Position numbers and translations under genes: made by a program | The notes under the pieces: generated by a model | The model's database searches: none | What the model saw: only the letters and a program-made list of their open reading frames with translations | What the model was told of the DNA's origin: nothing | Shown: one piece after another, positions 25,966-43,314 of the stretch | How positions within the stretch are numbered: position 1 is the stretch's first letter | Layout: each line of letters starts with the position of its first letter | NCBI GenBank assembly: GCA_937877455.1 | Contig: CALFIU010000189.1 | Span: 28,852 to 92,851 of the forward strand | Source of the DNA: an uncultured Bacteroidales bacterium | Lineage (GTDB): Bacteria; Bacteroidota; Bacteroidia; Bacteroidales; UBA3824 | DNA length: 64,000 nucleotides | Reading direction: 5' to 3'

Positions 25966-27332
25966 ATGGCATCCTCCACGATCAATTCTTCCGCTTCTTC
26001 CATGTCTGGCATGTCAGATGTATCTTTGATAATTCCTTCAAGACATTTAAAACTGAAGTTTTTATGTTTGTAAGCTGTAAAACTCGGTCTGTTATCAATT
26101 CTGATAACAACGCCTTCGCGAACATGTGTCTTACCAATCGGGTCTGCGCCATCATAGTATTTTTCGACACGCGCCATAAGATCATCCCATGTAGTAAAGA
26201 TAAACTTTTCAAATGTAGGAACACACTTAGCGCCCATCTTTTCGGCTTCAATTTGTACCTGTTCCCAAGGAAGTTCAACCATAATGCCATCTTCATTCAT
26301 CATTATCATGCGATAAACATATGCATCATTTTCTCCGACTTCACATCCGTAAGAGAACACGGTTTCTTTCCCGTACTGCTTCTGGAAATCTTTATCTTTC
26401 ACGAGCTTATTTGAACATTTGCCCATGATAGTCTGATTTCCTTCTGTATAGCCAACGACCTCATAGAACACTTCGCATCCTTTAGGAAGTTTGTCTTTGA
26501 AGAAATCATGATATTTCTGTCTGAATTTGTTACTTCCGTAGTAGCCACCGTCATACTCGCGCAATGTGGTTCTTCTTGTGCCAGTGATGTATTGATACTT
26601 TCTTGTCTGTTTATCGCGAAGTTTAAACAGTTTTTTCAGAATTGGGTTTCTTCTCTTCTTTGTAATCTGAAGTGTGTTGGCTGTCCTCTGGCTCGTGCCA
26701 TGCATCTTTAATGTGATGTAGCACGTATCGCCTTCTCTAAATGCGTTCTGATTAAATGCAAGCTGCTGTGTATCAATATGCTCAACGAATAAAGGATAAC
26801 TAACCGTTTCTTTTAATTCTTTCTTGTTTACCTTGTACTTGCTACCGCCAGAAGAATTGTTTCTCTTTCTCTTCGGAATATACTTTCTGCAAATCTCGTG
26901 ACCGTCAATTACAGAAATCATATCGCCATCTCTCAGTGTAGTTACATCGACATACTTTGAAAGCGTTTCAATCGGTAAAACTAATCCGTCAGACTTTTCG
27001 CCACGAAGTTTTAATGCCGTGATATTTCTTTTCTCGGCATCCATGTATCCACCGACATTTATAACATCAACGCCATCTTTCTGAATAATTTGCTTTCCTT
27101 CAATCTGTGCATCGTCAAGTTCGGAAACAGGAACGTATTTCTTGACAAGATTATTGTCTGTTGCAAATTCTTCACTCAGCTGCCCATCGACAGGGAAATA
27201 AATAACGCGCTGTCCTTCATGATAATTCAAATCAACAATAACATTATTCCCAAACACGCTCGTTGTGAGGAGTCTGTCTGCATTCGAGTGTTTATGTAAT
27301 TCCTTTAACGTAGTGACATATGCGAAATACAT
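25962..27332 (-). CDS. RNA ligase, DRB0094/DraRnl-like (N-terminal OB domain plus adenylyltransferase)
   Basis: N-terminus HSNADRLLTTSVFGNNVIV (OB module). Motif I is ITLKMHGTS (KxHG, as in the Rnl2/Rnl5 clade). Confidence 0.75.
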   Translation of the reverse strand: MYFAYVTTLKELHKHSNADRLLTTSVFGNNVIVDLNYHEGQRVIYFPVDGQLSEEFATDNNLVKKYVPVSELDDAQIEGKQIIQKDGVDVINVGGYMDAEKRNITALKLRGEKSDGLVLPIETLSKYVDVTTLRDGDMISVIDGHEICRKYIPKRKRNNSSGGSKYKVNKKELKETVSYPLFVEHIDTQQLAFNQNAFREGDTCYITLKMHGTSQRTANTLQITKKRRNPILKKLFKLRDKQTRKYQYITGTRRTTLREYDGGYYGSNKFRQKYHDFFKDKLPKGCEVFYEVVGYTEGNQTIMGKCSNKLVKDKDFQKQYGKETVFSYGCEVGENDAYVYRMIMMNEDGIMVELPWEQVQIEAEKMGAKCVPTFEKFIFTTWDDLMARVEKYYDGADPIGKTHVREGVVIRIDNRPSFTAYKHKNFSFKCLEGIIKDTSDMPDMEEAEELIVEDAI

Positions 27333-27589
27333 TATTTCTTCTTTCCTTTCTTCTGCTTCTTCCTATTTGGTTTCTTTTTAGGCTTTTCATTAACCTTTTT
27401 AACTTTCTCTTTCTTGTTGTGTTTCGTGTTATCTTGCATTATTTCAATATTGTCAATCTTCAGTCTTTTTGGTTTCGTTTCAAAATAACAATTCTTGCAA
27501 ATATCTAATTCGCAGTTTCTATCAGTTGTAAATCTGTAAACATGACTCATAACATTATAGCATTTTGGACAAATCATCATTTTGCACAT
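27332..27589 (-). CDS. Zinc-ribbon protein with lysine-rich tail
   Basis: CPKC...CKNC followed by a KKKPNRKKQKKGKKK tail. Confidence 0.5.
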   Translation of the reverse strand: MCKMMICPKCYNVMSHVYRFTTDRNCELDICKNCYFETKPKRLKIDNIEIMQDNTKHNKKEKVKKVNEKPKKKPNRKKQKKGKKK

Positions 27590-27653: not shown

Positions 27654-28354
27654 AAATTATCCTTATGTATGTACAGTTTTTCTGTAGACTTAAACTGATT
27701 GTTCTTATTAACATCAAGTATTCGTCTTATTTCTTTCTGCCATATACATACGAAATCATCTGGAGCATTCAGTTCTGAAATATATACCACATGATCTTTG
27801 CTTATCTGCCTCATATATTCCCAAAATTGTGCAGTATTAAAATCGCCATTAGCATATTTTGTCGTATTCTCATATGGTGGATCGGCATAAACAGCGCATC
27901 CGTCTGGAAGTAAAACATCTCTATAATCCAAACAAGTAAACTCTGCGTCCATTAGCGTCCTCATTTTGGACGCAAGCGACCGTTTACCTCTTAGTGCATA
28001 ATTAACTTGTGCCTTATCTCTTGCATAACCACCAAACCATTTACCACCAAAACTACATGCAAATCCGACAAATCCTGTTAGCGCAGGATCATCGTCTTTA
28101 TGTTCTTTTATGTAATGATATTGTTCTTCCGTAACTGTTTCAGGTAAATCATATCCGTTCTGTAATGCCTGAAATAAAGCAATCAAATACGGCTGATTAT
28201 CGTTGCATATAATCCTATCAAACCCTTTAACCTTTGCTTCTATGTTGCAAGCCCCACAAAAGAGGGAAACCAAGGTTCTACTTAGTGATACCCCCCCCTC
28301 TACGTGCAAGGCAATATCCTTTGCAATCCTTGATTTTCCACCTTGATACCTCAT
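27617..28354 (-). CDS. dam: DNA adenine methyltransferase (Dam-like, D12 class)
   Basis: N-terminal YQGGKSRIAK, FCGACN (FxGxG-like), and catalytic YADPPY. Confidence 0.85.
   Translation of the reverse strand: MRYQGGKSRIAKDIALHVEGGVSLSRTLVSLFCGACNIEAKVKGFDRIICNDNQPYLIALFQALQNGYDLPETVTEEQYHYIKEHKDDDPALTGFVGFACSFGGKWFGGYARDKAQVNYALRGKRSLASKMRTLMDAEFTCLDYRDVLLPDGCAVYADPPYENTTKYANGDFNTAQFWEYMRQISKDHVVYISELNAPDDFVCIWQKEIRRILDVNKNNQFKSTEKLYIHKDNLEIIQNNSCIIP
28291..28298 (-). repeat. G8 homopolymer (coding strand) inside dam, codons 20-22
   Basis: C8 on the plus strand. Encodes part of HVEGGVS. Confidence 0.95.
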
Positions 28355-28358
28355 TGTA

Positions 28359-28366
28359 CCCCCCCC
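28359..28366 (-). repeat. G8 homopolymer 4 nt upstream of the dam ATG (RBS position)
   Basis: The minus strand reads AGTAGGGGGGGGTACAATG. Confidence 0.95.
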
Positions 28367-28426
28367 TACTAATGATGCTTGCTATATTAGATGATATAAT
28401 GTACTTGCCACCTTGGTACTGCATAT

Positions 28427-28867
28427 TCACTCTCCGTCTATCTTTGTTTGTTTAGCTTCGCCATCTAAGCTATCATATGTTCCCATAGCTTCGCGTTGCG
28501 CCAACATTTTCCTGTTTTTCAAATCTTCAAAAAATTGTTCTTTTGGATTGATAAATACATATGCCAGTTCATTTCCAAAGAAAACGCCATAGATAACATC
28601 ATCGCAATCGCGCCATTTTCTTTTATCATCGTCTGTATAAACTCGCCAACGCATTTCAATTACGGTTGTATATTCATCCGTGAGAGCCTGTCCAGCAAAA
28701 CCACTTTTCAAATTAAATCCTGTCGCAGTATCAGCCCATGTTTGTATGAAAACATCAGCCCTGAATGTCGGGAAACAAGTATTCTTTAATATTCCCTCAC
28801 CTTCACTAAACACAAATTGTTTAAATTTATATTCAATCAATTCTAAATTAGGATACCTTGCTTTCAT
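28427..28867 (-). CDS. Hypothetical protein
   Basis: Co-oriented ORF. Confidence 0.45.
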   Translation of the reverse strand: MKARYPNLELIEYKFKQFVFSEGEGILKNTCFPTFRADVFIQTWADTATGFNLKSGFAGQALTDEYTTVIEMRWRVYTDDDKRKWRDCDDVIYGVFFGNELAYVFINPKEQFFEDLKNRKMLAQREAMGTYDSLDGEAKQTKIDGE

Positions 28868-32238: not shown

Positions 32239-32576
32239 GATATCGGATCGCCATTCATATCAAAATGTGATGCCATTTCGACATTCATTTGATATTCCTG
32301 TTCTTCGTACCAGTCTGCGATTTCTTTCTCAACCAGAAAATATATTGAATGTTCTGTCGTGATAATCAATCCATCATCTGCTTGCGCAACGCCTTTGACA
32401 AAAGAAGTAATGATTGACTTGTACCATCCGGGGTCTGTACATGTCATGTACAGGCGATTGTCAATCTTTATATCTTTTATATCAAGGTCAATAATGCGTC
32501 CAATGCGAGCCACAACTTCATCATCTGTCTTATCTTTCCCATCCAAATCAGTTATTTTAACAAGTTTGTAAAGCAT
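32235..32576 (-). CDS. Hypothetical protein
   Basis: Co-oriented ORF with 4-nt overlaps. Confidence 0.45.
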   Translation of the reverse strand: MLYKLVKITDLDGKDKTDDEVVARIGRIIDLDIKDIKIDNRLYMTCTDPGWYKSIITSFVKGVAQADDGLIITTEHSIYFLVEKEIADWYEEQEYQMNVEMASHFDMNGDPIS

Positions 32577-33309
32577 CTTTTACACCTAACCTTTCTTCCG
32601 CAATGCGCAGATATTCTTTATCAAGTTCTATTCCTAAAAATCTTCTGTTTGTATTTATACACGCAACACCTGTACTTCCAGAGCCACAACAGTTATCAAG
32701 AACTAAATCTCCTTCATTTGAATATGTTTTAATCAGCCATTCAAGAAGTGCAATCGGCTTTTGTGTTGGATGTAATCTACTGCTGTCACGAGGAAACGAT
32801 AGAATACTTAAAGGATTTCTTCTGCCATCTTCACTTTCAGAAAATGCTTCGTTTCTAAATCCATAATTTGTTGATAGGCTACTATTCTTTGTTCTCTTAT
32901 ACGGCTCTGAATACCAAAATTGTTTATTATATGTAGGTTTCTTTTTGTAAAATACTGCTATATCTTCATGGCATTTTAATGGTTTAACATTTGCGTTTAG
33001 GAAATCACATCCTCTTTGTTTATCCCATACAAGATTGTATCTCCACATTTTAGGATTTGATAAAAGCAATTTCGCCGTAAACATACCATCGCAAAATAGA
33101 ATTATTGCGCCATTATCTTTGATTATTCTTTTGTAATGCACCCATAATTCATCAAACGGTATCAAACAATCCCATGTGTTTCTTGTGGAAGAATATGGTA
33201 AATCACATAAAACCAAATCAATGCTTTTATCGGGGAGATTACCCATCAGAGATAGGCAATCCCCCCCCCACAAAGATATTTGTTTATTATTATTATTATT
33301 ATCTTGCAT
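32557..33309 (-). CDS. DNA methyltransferase (N6_N4 type, beta class)
   Basis: CDLPY catalytic motif and HPTQKP...VLDNCCGSGST SAM motif. Contains a G9 tract. Confidence 0.85.
   Translation of the reverse strand: MQDNNNNNKQISLWGGDCLSLMGNLPDKSIDLVLCDLPYSSTRNTWDCLIPFDELWVHYKRIIKDNGAIILFCDGMFTAKLLLSNPKMWRYNLVWDKQRGCDFLNANVKPLKCHEDIAVFYKKKPTYNKQFWYSEPYKRTKNSSLSTNYGFRNEAFSESEDGRRNPLSILSFPRDSSRLHPTQKPIALLEWLIKTYSNEGDLVLDNCCGSGSTGVACINTNRRFLGIELDKEYLRIAEERLGVKDALQTC
33261..33269 (-). repeat. G9 homopolymer (coding strand) at codons 14-16 of methyltransferase 32557-33309
   Basis: C9 on the plus strand. Encodes SLWGGDC and follows an (AAT)n asparagine run. Confidence 0.95.
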
Positions 33310-34328
33310 TATTCATTATCCATGACTGCATTATCTTTGATTTCCTTAATTTCTTTTGCCTTCAGTCCAAGAGCTTTTAACTGTGCTTCAAGTTCTTTAA
33401 TTTCCGCACGAACATCTTTCTTCTTCTGCTGAAGCCGCTTCTGCTCTTCTTTCACAGCTTTAGCATTTGTACTCTGCTCTTTTCCTTTTTCAAGTTCGAC
33501 ATTGAAACGTTCTTTCATAGCTTCAATACCATCATCTGTTTCAAAAATACTATCGTCCCACTTGCTAAATCTTTCATTAATTGCCAAATCATAGAAATCT
33601 TTATTGAGTTCAATGCCGATTGCACTTCTATGGTTTTCGATAGCAACCTTATTTACCGTGCCAGCACCAGCGAAAGGATCAAGTATTACATCACCCGGAC
33701 AAGACCATAGTCTAATACATCTCTCAACAAGTGCTTCAGCGAACGGAGTTGTATGTCCGATGCCTGAATTTCCTATATTCCATACACCATCAGCCCAATC
33801 AGCCCATTCAGCAAGTGTAATATCAGATGCCTTAATCAGTTCGCAATCGCCAGATTTTTTATAGACATATACGAAGCCGACATTGGCAGCGAGGATTGTA
33901 TCTCTGGCTTTCATATTCCTATAATAGAGATTGCCCTGTGCTAACATTGCTCTCTGCGCGGAATACTTGCGCCAAAATGCCTTAGTCCATAACTGGAAAT
34001 TGTTTTCAAGCATAATCCTGTTAATATCGCCAGTAATAGATTCCTGCCCCATCTTGTTATCTCTGCCGAGTGTGTAATTGTAATCTTCAAACTGCATGAT
34101 AAATTTACCACCGGGTTTAAGAACACGTTCACACTCAGCGATAACAAGACCAAGCATATAATAATATTCTTCGTAGCTTTCACAATTAGATAGATCGTGT
34201 GGATCGTTCGAGTAAACTCGAAGATTGTGATAAGGGGGGCTTGTCATAATCATATCAACGCTTTCAGCGTCAAGTTTCTTTAGTTCGGTAAGACAGTCAC
34301 CATTGATCCATTTGTTTGTTAATCTCAT
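33309..34328 (-). CDS. DNA methyltransferase (N4-C/N6-A type, SPPY) with C-terminal coiled coil
   Basis: Contains TSPPY and DPFAGAGTV. K/E-rich C-terminal tail. Confidence 0.85.
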   Translation of the reverse strand: MRLTNKWINGDCLTELKKLDAESVDMIMTSPPYHNLRVYSNDPHDLSNCESYEEYYYMLGLVIAECERVLKPGGKFIMQFEDYNYTLGRDNKMGQESITGDINRIMLENNFQLWTKAFWRKYSAQRAMLAQGNLYYRNMKARDTILAANVGFVYVYKKSGDCELIKASDITLAEWADWADGVWNIGNSGIGHTTPFAEALVERCIRLWSCPGDVILDPFAGAGTVNKVAIENHRSAIGIELNKDFYDLAINERFSKWDDSIFETDDGIEAMKERFNVELEKGKEQSTNAKAVKEEQKRLQQKKKDVRAEIKELEAQLKALGLKAKEIKEIKDNAVMDNE

Positions 34329-38054: not shown

Positions 38055-38468
38055 TATGTACCTCCTGTATTAAATCTTTCCTGTATTTATATCTATGTAA
38101 AGCCTATCTAATCCTGACTCAAATGCGCCTATTCCTGAAAAGAAACTGCTCAATTTAAGGTCATCGAATAGATAAGGCATAACTTTATATAATTGTTTAT
38201 ATATATGATATAAAACATCTACTACTATACTATTTCCAGCCTGTTTATATAACTGACTGTTACTTATTCCTGCTGCTTCTGCTTTGTTAAAATCTTCATC
38301 AGAAAATCCCATTAGTCTAAAGCACTCTTTTGGAGTCAGCTTTCGTATTCTATATTCTTCTAATTCGTCACTTTCACATACTGTTATCGTATCGCTATCA
38401 TCTTCGAGATAACCTTTTGGGAAATAAATAACGCCTTCTCGTTTTTCATATTCTACCACTCGTTTCGC

Positions 38469-38476
38469 CCCCCCCG
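38469..38476 (-). repeat. G8 homopolymer in the C-terminal C5-MTase fragment (codons 29-31)
   Basis: C8 on the plus strand. Encodes IDSGGAK. Confidence 0.95.
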
Positions 38477-38675
38477 AATCGATAGTCCGTATCGCACCAA
38501 TAGTATTATCCTTAAAGGTTCTCAATCCTTCGTCATATCTTCTTTCGCACACAATCTTCATTTACCTTTTCTATCCTCAATATCATGTTTGATGTTTGAA
38601 GTGTCGGACAAGTCCATCCATTGTCTTGAACTCTTCCACGTTTTAATTTGCTTTTGGGGTAACTTGCATTAAATA

Positions 38676-38684
38676 CCCCCCCCC
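38676..38684 (-). repeat. G9 homopolymer at a frame junction between TRD-like segments
   Basis: The minus strand reads GATGCGGGGGGGGGTATTTAA. A G8 tract would read on into VFNASYPKSKLKRGRVQDNGWTCPTLQT. Confidence 0.95.
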
Positions 38685-39030
38685 GCATCACAGAGTATAT
38701 AACCCTTTTTAGTTGCCTGTCTTATTCTTATTTTGTCCATTTATTTTCACCAATACTTTTGGTTCATGCCCCCCACCTTGGCAAGTATTAAGTGTTGGAC
38801 ATAAACCATAGACGGAATAAACTCTTCCCACTTGTGGATTTTTAAAATTGTTTTCTTTTTGAATGTTTCCAAGCAAAATTATATCTTTTGTTTTATCTTG
38901 CATTATTTATATTCTATAATACCACTTTTCTCTTTTCTTCTGTTTCCGATTCCAGAATCATATCTTGCCGTAATGCAGCAAGCCACATCAACAACTCCTG
39001 CACCATTCACACACAAGTCAATACCTTGCC

Positions 39031-39075
39031 TCTTGTCTTGTCTTGTCTTGTCTTGTCTTGTCTTGTCTTGTCTTG
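39031..39075 (-). repeat. Pentanucleotide repeat (TCTTG)9, GACAA on the coding strand, inside the C5-MTase after motif VIII
   Basis: Nine perfect copies. It is translated as (DKTRQ)3 and followed by a stop in the present frame. Confidence 0.95.
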
Positions 39076-39941
39076 TCGGCTTCTAAGACACCATCGTGTA
39101 GTAAATCTCTTATAAGACTTCTTGCTTTTTCTGTGTTGATGTAATACTTTTCATCAACTTCATCTTCGAGCATGTCTAATAAACACTTCCCATCTGATAT
39201 CGGTTCTGGAAATTTAAATTGTCCGTTATCCATTTCCTTCTTGATTATGATTAGATATAATCTTTCTCTGTTTTGAGGTATGCCATAATTCTTAGCATTT
39301 AATACTTGCCAATAACAGTTATATCCATATTCGCCAAGTTCAGATATGAATAAATCAAAAGTAGGTTTAAATCTCTTGCTTACAATATTCTTTACATTCT
39401 CGTATATTCCCCAAGTAGGTTTATTTTCTTTTATGATACGCAACCATTCAACAAGTAGTGAAGATCGTGTTTTGTCAAGGTTCTGGCTACCGCAATTAGG
39501 GCATTTATTTCTTTTTGAATAATGAACTGTTAATGGATTATACTCGCATCCGCAATCGGAGCATTGCCATCTGCTGCCTTTCTGTTTTCCAGCTATTGAA
39601 AAATCCTGACATGGACTCCCACCGCAAATCATTGTAAATGGAAAAAGATTGTGTTCATCAACTTTTGTTATATCACCGAGATTTAAACTCTCATCTACTC
39701 CGTGAATTGCGCAGAAGCTTTTTGTTGCAAACTTATCAAATTCGCAGAAGTTTACAAGTTCATAACCTCGATCCGATAAAACAATCTTTTTATCGTTACT
39801 ATCTTCCATAAACTACCTATTTTAGCGCACTTTGAAAACCGTAACGCTTCACCTTTCTTGATTTTGTCGGCAAGCGAAAAATCTTTTTGACTATTTTAGC
39901 GAGTTTATTTTCACTGAAACGTTAATAAAAAGATTGTTTCT

Positions 39942-42047: not shown

Positions 42048-43314
42048 TTATTTATTGATTGTTAAATATTTTTGTGTTTTTTCGTTGCCATACTCTTTTT
42101 CATACTTGTCATAATTCGGAATATACATTTTCGTGTTCCCATGCATATTTATGTATTGCATCACAAACCAATATCCAAGACCTTTATTTGACGGTTTCCA
42201 CAAACCATTTTCATCAAATGCGCCGCCTCTTAAAATGTAATCCTGAATCTTCGGATTTGATAATTCTTCAATTAGTTCTAACCGATTAGGACGTTTTTCT
42301 AAATGCAGTCCGAACCCACACATGCAGCATCCAGTCCTTGAACATCCTGTTGTTTTTAAGCATGGTCTATCTAATTCAAATATTCCTTTATCCTCATATC
42401 CCACAACGTCAAATTTAGAACCATCATCGGCTACAATATCACCATATACGGGGCATAATTTTATATCATGTAGAAGTGCATACAAAAGAATATCTTGCTC
42501 AAACCAGAATGACATCGGATTACTGATGGGATTTTTAGCATCAAACATATTACATCCGTGTTGAAGCCATTTCTGCGTTCTAAGCCTACTTTCACTTGCC
42601 ATTTGTGCAGTGATACCTTTTCTTCCTGTCTGCTTCGTATATGTGTGCATTGGTGATTTTTTCATTACATTGCAACACTTATTTGATATTTCAAAAGGAG
42701 CTTCAAGTAAAAACTGCCATTTTACTTGCGTAAATTGTGACTTATCTTTTTCAGGGATATTCGCCTTTATCTGTTGATCCTTCGTCAGCATCCCCAACAT
42801 TTGAGCGAGTCTCTGATTGTTGCCTCCTTTGTGGTTTTTCATTCTGTAATTTAGTATATTCGCCAATTCCTCGGAGTTTGCGATATTTGTTATCGTACCC
42901 CCCCTCGACATTGAAATCAGGCATTGTCTCTTCTTCTATCAGCTTTGTCAAATATTTTCTTGCACCAGATACACATTCCGATACTTCTTTTGATACGAAT
43001 GGATAACCATATTTTTCTATCGTTTGTTTAAATCCCATTTTAGGTTTAATCCAATCAACGTTATCAAAAGTCTTTACAAAACTTCTAATCTCTGGATATT
43101 CCAAACCAGTATCAGAATAGACTGCTTTAATATTTGGATACATTTCTCGTGCAATATGTAAAAGAACCGTACTGTCTTTGCCTCCACTGAACGAAACAAA
43201 CACACCATCTTCTCCATATTCATTTACCCATTGTCTAATTCTGTTCTGCGTCATGCGAACTTTTATATCAAGAGGTAATGCTTGCATTTGTTGTAAGTCT
43301 TGCCGTGTTCTCAT
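42048..43314 (-). pseudogene. PAPS-reductase/DndC-like PP-loop enzyme, split by a frameshift at a G7 tract
   Basis: The upstream ORF has the FSGGKDS PP-loop and the downstream ORF has the Cys-rich C-terminus (CSRTGCCMCG). The two frames overlap, and removing one G at 42898-42904 gives ...FNVEGGTITNIANSEE... Confidence 0.75.
42898..42904 (-). repeat. G7 homopolymer at the PAPS-reductase-like frame junction
   Basis: C7 on the plus strand. Confidence 0.95.

Follow-up and report, generated by a model that had tools for sequence, protein, structure and literature searches.

Why should a phage gene for a DNA adenine methyltransferase begin twice, each time with a similar short module and each time with a run of eight guanines behind it? 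The question is raised by the dam gene of a gut or rumen phage on the minus strand of contig CALFIU010000189.1 (assembly GCA_937877455.1), within the 64,000-nucleotide (nt) stretch that was analysed here and that we call the window. Phase-variable methylases are textbook matter for a few bacterial pathogens. We consider it quite probable that the 5' end of the phage gene is likewise a slipped-strand contingency locus, in which two starts in two frames give a short, a long or a double enzyme or leave the enzyme OFF.

The double start of the dam gene

The 245-amino acid (aa) product is a D12-class (alpha-group) N6-adenine DNA methyltransferase (PF02086, E 5.4e-16; score 59.5 bits, cut-off 22). 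Its match to the dam subfamily TIGR00571 reaches 45 bits, under the cut-off of 115 bits, and the enzyme is thus a divergent member. The motifs follow the order X-I-IV, with YQGGK at residues 3-7, LFCGAC at residues 31-36 and DPPY, which is invariant in the family alignment, at residues 158-161. In D12 enzymes the motif-X segment (M-x-YQGGK and a helix) lies ahead of motif I and contributes to the S-adenosylmethionine (AdoMet) pocket, and it is this segment that is present twice. A preliminary description of the locus had read cassette 1 (58 nt), G8, cassette 2 (56 nt), G8 and the Dam body in this order, and the minus strand carries exactly this arrangement:

28435-28430, minus strand: Shine-Dalgarno (SD)-like GGAGAG, read off the sequence, 5 nt 5' of ATG1
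28424-28422, minus strand: ATG1, the first start
28424-28367, minus strand: cassette 1 (M1), ATG and motif-X module MQYQGGKYIISSNIASIIS, 58 nt
28366-28359, minus strand: tract 1, G8, which determines in which frame cassette 1 meets cassette 2
28358-28355, minus strand: spacer of sequence TACA, from tract 1 to ATG2
28354-28352, minus strand: ATG2, the second start
28354-28299, minus strand: cassette 2 (M2), ATG and motif-X module MRYQGGKSRIAKDIALHVE, 56 nt
28298-28291, minus strand: tract 2, G8, which selects which start, if any, enters the Dam body
28290-27617, minus strand: Dam body, from motif I (LVSLFCGAC) to motif IV (DPPY), C-terminus and stop (Pfam PF02086)
28424-28278, minus strand: open reading frame (ORF) 1 as assembled, a 48-aa dead end from ATG1 (cassette 1, out-of-frame cassette 2, ..GGGITK, stop)

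The out-of-frame product of the first start, described before as 48 aa long, does end at 28278, and it has 50 aa when begun at an upstream GTG. The ribosome-binding string ahead of ATG1 had also been said to recur at thyX; a search of the window for the 14-mer GGAGAGTGAATATG with up to one mismatch gave a single occurrence, and at that length the statement does not hold. The distance from ATG1 to ATG2 is 70 nt (1 mod 3), so that two initiation codons in different frames stand upstream of tract 2, and tract 2 codes for a Gly-Gly loop separating the motif-X helix from the motif-I strand. Tract 1 may plausibly serve as the SD element of ATG2, because no other SD-like element is seen upstream of that start.

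The consequences of tract length were enumerated in silico for n1 = 6-10 and n2 = 5-10, the lengths of tracts 1 and 2. ATG2 enters the Dam body only if n2 is 5 or 8, and it then gives the 245-aa short enzyme, G8 being the assembled state. When n2 is 5 or 8 and n1 is 7 or 10, ATG1 fuses both cassettes in frame into a double-headed product of 267-269 aa. When n1 is 8 and n2 is 7 or 10, ATG1 enters the body and gives a long enzyme of 268-269 aa, in which cassette 1 supplies motif X and the +2 frame of cassette 2 (..EVSRWKIKDCKGY..), open in the window translation, forms a linker of ~25 residues; the 268-aa enzyme of n1 = 8 and n2 = 7 in the window is beyond what the preliminary description foresaw. 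At n1 = 6 or 9 the ATG1 frame ends after 23-24 codons, and all remaining combinations yield peptides of 23-49 aa with the enzyme OFF. Removal of the DNA between the tracts produces an in-frame cassette-1 enzyme when G6 or G9 is left. The frame table agrees with the earlier proposal that a change of one nucleotide in either tract alters which N-terminus is fused to the enzyme or turns it ON or OFF.

The repeats that set these frames are coding, lie at the 5' end of the gene and exceed the length expected by chance. In fact, the 13 G7 matches in the window form six tracts, all on the coding strand, whereas dinucleotide shuffles of the window give 0.75 matches on average and 3 at most; these six tracts of seven or more guanines are the only ones on the entire 101-kb contig, whose GC content is 36%. 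Two of them are the G8 tracts of dam.

According to the contingency-locus reading, the 5' end would be built of a duplicated start cassette, each copy having its own start codon, motif-X segment and terminal poly-G. Each poly-G would slip by 1 nt during replication and so reset the frames; in the clade of the window a second tract (tract 1) would additionally set the relation between the cassettes, and slippage from tract to tract would remove cassette 2 permanently, leaving the cassette-1 enzyme. Switching inside one phage population may be frequent and reversible, and the long and double forms may be active. The purpose would probably be a bet-hedging of phage DNA methylation against restriction, in which methylation would protect part of the progeny from enzymes that attack unmethylated sites, and its absence would protect the rest from methyl-dependent restriction.

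Tract lengths in close relatives and across the family

Close relatives keep the gene order of the window, composed of a gene for 147 aa, Dam, a gene for 82-85 aa and an RNA ligase. In the ten relative contigs that are resolved at both tracts and whose flanks are otherwise identical, tract 1 ranges from G6 to G9 and tract 2 from G5 to G9, so that the lengths are not fixed, a point on which the preliminary description had made its interpretation depend. The tract lengths (tract 1, tract 2) and the resulting states are as follows:

Window: (8,8), short ON
L171 and L172: (7,5), double ON
L173 and L192: (6,8), short ON
L174: (8,9), with the frame of G7, the A before the tract being G; OFF
L175: (9,7), OFF
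L176: (8,7), OFF
L177: (8,9), OFF
L179: (8,6), OFF
L008, sister clade (72% identity): (9,6), OFF
L180, sister clade: (8,5), ON from a TTG start
Logan contig of run X16, sister clade: (6,8)

Repeat length thus varies among near-identical genomes, and both ON and OFF phases are present. Moreover, short, long, double, cassette-1-only and truncated forms occur together within single protein clusters of 90% identity. A recombination between the two G8 tracts, which had been suggested from the window alone, has a natural counterpart in L170, where cassette 2 is deleted exactly between the tracts and cassette 1 is joined to the body through a single G6; this locus codes for a 245-aa cassette-1 enzyme (P0130). 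It also differs at a few bases of cassette 1, which indicates a separate lineage and not a mis-join.

The spacer between tract 1 and ATG2 is a further variable element. The window has TACA and its nearest relatives, L171-L179, have TACAACTAACCAG, a difference of 9 nt; the TAA inside TACAACTAACCAG closes the cassette-1 frame at G8 in these relatives and is absent from the window spacer. As a consequence, the long read-through isoform can be made by the window and the L008 clade but not by these nearest relatives.

The design is not peculiar to the phage of the window, and this goes beyond the preliminary description: two cassettes are the common architecture of a large family. A protein search returned 1,940 relatives at E <= 1e-20, whose N-termini have a simple repeat at one fixed spot, the linker from the motif-X helix to motif I. 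This repeat may be poly-G (read as 'GGGG'), (GA)n ('ERERE') or (CA)n ('THTHT'). Many of the ORFs contain two cassettes, or cassette 1 followed by '..ISRWKIKNS..', which is RYQGGKSRI in a shifted frame. At the DNA level we surveyed 61 loci from IMG/VR and GTDB genomes (L045 being the same record as L008), and two motif-X cassettes stand upstream of a slippery tract in 39 of them. Their hosts include Ruminococcus, Oscillospiraceae and other Clostridia, and isolates are among them.

Tract 1 (G7-G10) is limited to a few clades. Where it is absent, the two starts are 55, 58 or 67 nt apart; each of these spacings is 1 mod 3, which by construction puts the starts in different frames. The family has G6-G11, (GA)7-17.5 or (AT)9-10 as tract 2. 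Of the two-cassette loci 38 are distinct, with 14 in the short, 5 in the long and 3 in the double state (22 ON) and 16 that are OFF, and the OFF loci keep intact bodies downstream. One group with identical cassettes alone includes the combinations (8,8), (7,8), (9,9), (8,7), (7,9), (10,8) and (7,7).

Five loci from IMG/VR (L027, L028, L030, L031 and L071) have a single cassette, with a cassette-1-like N-terminus followed by '..HEISGMGG..'. Judged by their sequences they resemble the long isoform minus most of cassette 2, as though the switch had settled permanently in one form.

Since the two tracts present matching GGG codons 68 nt apart, several isoforms could in principle come from one genotype at the level of RNA or the ribosome, through transcriptional slippage, programmed frameshifting or a hop from GGG to GGG. 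Slippage at homopolymer runs is known from other systems, and since the cassettes are nearly equal in length, a hop would leave cassette 1 in frame with the body at G6 or G9, just as a deletion does. However, length differences and a deletion variant at the level of DNA are sufficient by themselves. In the clades with (GA)n or (AT)n the take-off and landing codons do not match, and in the window the would-be take-off site is not followed by a stop codon. We give recoding hardly any credence.

Translational bypass of the T4 gene 60 type was considered as a separate candidate and rejected: it would require a stop directly behind the take-off codon, but tract 1 is followed by TAC, and the relatives with (GA)n or (AT)n lack the matched pair.

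Selection on the cassettes and the predicted structure

The upstream cassette, for which the preliminary description had reckoned with both a conserved element and a fossil, is kept in L008, in L170-L183 and in the 39 loci of the survey. Its ratio of nonsynonymous to synonymous polymorphism (pN/pS) is 0.30, that of cassette 2 is 0.35, and the same DNA in shifted frames gives 1.2-2.1. Cassette 1 retains its start and the YxGGK motif across bodies that have diverged to ~55% identity. In addition, the cassette-1 frame is stop-free over cassette 2 in 29 of 29 unique loci, where synonymous reshuffling predicts 10.7; for the third frame, the count of open loci is 2 of 29 and the expectation 3.0. According to these comparisons cassette 1 is under purifying selection and is no fossil, and the DNA of cassette 2 is kept dual-coding, a direction that is clear although the loci are related.

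These values can be set against the simplest account of the locus, namely that the first 20 codons were once duplicated in tandem and cassette 1 is what is left of the decaying copy, that only the 245-aa enzyme matters, and that the differences in tract length arose through neutral indels or through errors in sequencing or assembly. Such an account fits the observations that cassette 1 as assembled yields just a dead-end peptide of 48 aa, that the length differences are seen between assemblies and none within one read set, and that 16 of the 38 related loci are OFF, as expected of decaying genes. What it does not fit is the low pN/pS of a cassette that keeps start and motif while the bodies diverge, the invariable 1 mod 3 offset of the starts, the read-through frame that stays open in every unique locus, and the intact bodies downstream of OFF loci; furthermore, the same spot holds poly-G, (GA)n or (AT)n according to clade, with 3 to 17 units, which is beyond errors. 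A fossil duplication with homopolymer noise is in our opinion highly improbable.

The structure predicted by AlphaFold2 (AF2) gives a place to both cassettes. T4 Dam is the nearest sequence with a solved structure (E 3e-4). T4 Dam and E. coli Dam (EcoDam; PDB 1YFL, 1Q0S, 2G1P, 4RTK) have the same fold and the same order of motifs, X, I ... IV (DPPY); they differ in having one N-terminus without a repeat tract. Dam proper forms m6A at GATC, and the window enzyme is ~20% identical to the solved enzymes, so that its target specificity cannot be read from them. The AF2 model of the short enzyme of the window has a mean predicted local distance difference test (pLDDT) score of 87.6 and a helix at residues 7-19, and the glycines coded by the tract lie in a loop before the first strand, a position consistent with the in-frame variants of +/-3 nt in the tract that are found in nature. 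P0005, a natural long isoform of 264 aa, was modelled with AF2 as well. Its structural alignment extends over ~200 residues (Z 15 with EcoDam, 14.5 with T4 Dam) and begins at model residue 3, which corresponds to EcoDam residue 10 and T4 Dam residue 7. We take these two residues to be the beginnings of the motif-X segments of those enzymes.

In the model of P0005, cassette 1 forms the helix at residues 7-19 and the body is confident; pLDDT is 61 for residues 1-10, 84 for residues 11-20 and below 50 for the out-of-frame linker at residues 22-46. The model suggests that cassette 1 occupies the position of motif X and that the out-of-frame stretch is a floppy loop. Natural full-length cassette-1 ORFs, the selection on cassette 1 and on the open read-through frame, and the placement of cassette 1 by AF2 lend indirect support to the idea that both starts may be used and give a functional product.

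Alternatively, cassette 1 could be a leader ORF that tunes initiation at ATG2 by occlusion or coupling, without any use of a cassette-1 enzyme; tract 1 would then alter the stop of the leader and the strength of the G-run as an SD, and tract 2 would be the ON/OFF element. ATG1 has in fact the stronger SD, its ORF overlaps ATG2 by 76 nt as assembled, tract 1 is only 4 nt from ATG2, and in the nearest subclade the TAA closes the read-through, so that cassette 1 mostly makes short peptides there. However, a leader peptide need not conserve motif X as strongly as a real copy, nor keep 18-26 extra codons open up to the tract; many natural contigs code for full-length cassette-1 enzymes (long, double or cassette-1-only), and AF2 puts cassette 1 at the site of motif X. 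Control by the upstream ORF as the whole explanation is unlikely, although the roles of leader ORF and of cassette-1 enzyme are not mutually exclusive.

Several points weigh against the contingency-locus reading itself. Every difference in length is one between assemblies (Logan contigs, compared between runs), and the consensus of metagenomes at repeats can be imperfect; such imperfection is insufficient as an explanation, because differences from (GA)3 to (GA)17 and a precise deletion need another cause. Of the sequencing runs, one matched the window (7% of words) and 24 matched L008, all as Logan contigs; in the L008 clade these contigs end precisely at tract 2 in two of four runs, which is at most a hint of switching. 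The loci surveyed are related, and the 29 of 29 and the pN/pS values therefore overstate the number of independent observations. The placement of cassette 1 by AF2 is of moderate confidence and the underlying alignment has 21 sequences. Lastly, the spacer TAA blocks the long form in the subclade nearest to the window and the long state is found in just 5 of the 38 loci, so that the long form may be of minor use.

Other poly-G tracts and known phase-variable systems

The other four poly-G tracts of the window fall in three further DNA-modification genes of the same phage:

33261-33269, minus strand: G9 tract, codons 14-16 of a 250-aa N6_N4 DNA methylase, ORF 33309..32557 (PF01555, E 1e-31)
38468-38475 and 38676-38684, minus strand: G8 and G9 tracts at frame junctions of a C5 cytosine methylase that lies in several ORFs, 38070-39809
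42898-42904, minus strand: G7 tract at the split of a PAPS-reductase-domain gene (PF01507), 42048-43314, which lies in two overlapping ORFs

PF00145 matches the C5 methylase pieces 39018-39809 and 38070-38561, and G8 or G5 at 42898-42904 would probably join both ORFs of the PAPS-reductase-domain gene. A second N6_N4 methylase, without a tract, is encoded immediately upstream of the one with G9 (33309-34328).

With poly-G in three other modification genes, the methylation pattern of the phage would be combinatorial, and this context supports the bet-hedging view. This leads to a stronger view, which we hold only tentatively: the locus could be a true epigenetic switch of three or more states, with short, long and double forms differing in amount, timing, activity or site preference, and part of a combinatorial 'methylome randomiser' widespread in the phages of gut and rumen Clostridia. 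Cassette 2 would then be maintained as motif X in one frame and as a tolerated loop in another, and one phage genotype would continually yield progeny with many different methylation patterns.

Contingency loci of phages have been shown experimentally only recently (T2/T4, 2025). The agt gene of coliphage T2, encoding a DNA alpha-glucosyltransferase, is such a locus: slips of +/-1 in homopolymers toggle the modification, and subpopulations evade modification-dependent or modification-sensitive restriction (Gomez, Barrick & Waters, bioRxiv 10.1101/2025.10.21.683753). The likeness lies in a phage DNA-modification gene that is switched by homopolymer slips, for which T2 agt is an experimental precedent. 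T2 agt, however, has A-runs in a single ORF and is a simple ON/OFF system, whereas the window has two G tracts and a duplicated start cassette with two starts in two frames; the case of the window, which is comparative only, concerns a methyltransferase and not a glucosyltransferase, with at least four predicted productive protein forms.

Haemophilus influenzae lic2A and lic1 are said to have multiple initiation codons upstream of a repeat, as Dixon and colleagues reportedly described in 2007 in J Bacteriol. There too, starts in different frames reportedly precede one slippery repeat and more than one phase is productive; the lic genes reportedly have bare ATGs in a dispensable leader, whereas in the window the whole motif-X segment is duplicated and its second copy is read in two frames.

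Bacterial phase-variable methyltransferases, such as Type III mod and the Type I hsd 'phasevarions', have been surveyed (PMC5909438, PMC7383803). In them, as in the window, an N6-adenine methyltransferase gene carries a simple repeat near its 5' end, and changes of frame at this repeat give ON and OFF phases. They are chromosomal, derived from restriction-modification (R-M) systems of host-adapted pathogens, and have one start codon; the window, in contrast, has an orphan D12 (Dam-type) enzyme of a kind found in phages and prophages of gut or rumen Clostridia, with a duplicated and dual-coding start module.

Among phages, hypermutable poly-G is reported in the receptor-binding protein genes of Campylobacter Fletchervirus phages (Sorensen et al. 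2021, Cell Rep 35:109214), and Bordetella phage BPP-1 has a methylase gene with a poly-G (Liu et al.), which according to the 2025 preprint was noted but not studied. Poly-G tracts of 7-11 nt create subpopulations in these phage genes as well, and BPP-1 is a precedent for poly-G in a phage methylase gene; unlike the window, neither is known to have a duplicated start cassette.

Phase-variable methylases, phage poly-G and contingency loci and multi-start switches are accordingly already known, and what appears to be new here is the duplicated two-frame start cassette. The literature searched contains no description of a duplicated motif-X, dual-coding start cassette or of its spread in gut phage Dam genes, which is no proof of novelty, and the main text of a preprint on 'epigenetic phase variation' in the gut (PMC11741434) mentions neither phages nor simple sequence repeats.

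The locus points to a long-standing use of such switching by phages and prophages of the dominant Firmicutes of gut and rumen, on their own anti-restriction methylases and with a more elaborate device, a duplicated start cassette that carries a catalytic motif and is read in two frames. If this is true, it would account for Dam genes being so often annotated as 'frameshifted' or 'truncated' in viromes and metagenome-assembled genomes (MAGs), and it would provide a natural example of a selected dual-coding sequence. Phage progeny would be epigenetically heterogeneous, which bears on host range and on escape from R-M and Type IV defence, and methylation-based linking of phages to hosts in metagenomes would be affected. 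The family has cultured lysogens in which the proposal would be directly testable, namely Ruminococcus sp. YE282 (L090), Acutalibacter caecimuris M00118 (L110) and Flintibacter muris DSM 110149 (L108).

As for the host, SD-like 4-mers precede 43 of 65 long ORFs of the window against a background of 10.5%, which fits a Firmicutes-type host, and this usage, together with the hosts of the relatives, points to Clostridia. A Bacteroidaceae MAG is given as the source of one relative, P0144. The contig of the window may have been put in the wrong bin. A blastn search against 50,697 GenBank phage records found no close relative, its only match being one of 93 nt to a Bacillus phage Dam.

In every close relative Dam is flanked by the same two proteins, which in the window are:

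27332-27589, minus strand: 85-aa protein with a zinc-ribbon-like start (CxxC...CxxC) and a lysine-rich tail
28427-28867, minus strand: 146-aa protein

Neither the 85-aa nor the 146-aa protein has a Pfam or NCBIfam match. Distant relatives of the Dam enzyme (35-38% identity; L127-L138, L156 and L166) are present in several copies per genome in Xenorhabdus, with four loci in X. vietnamensis.

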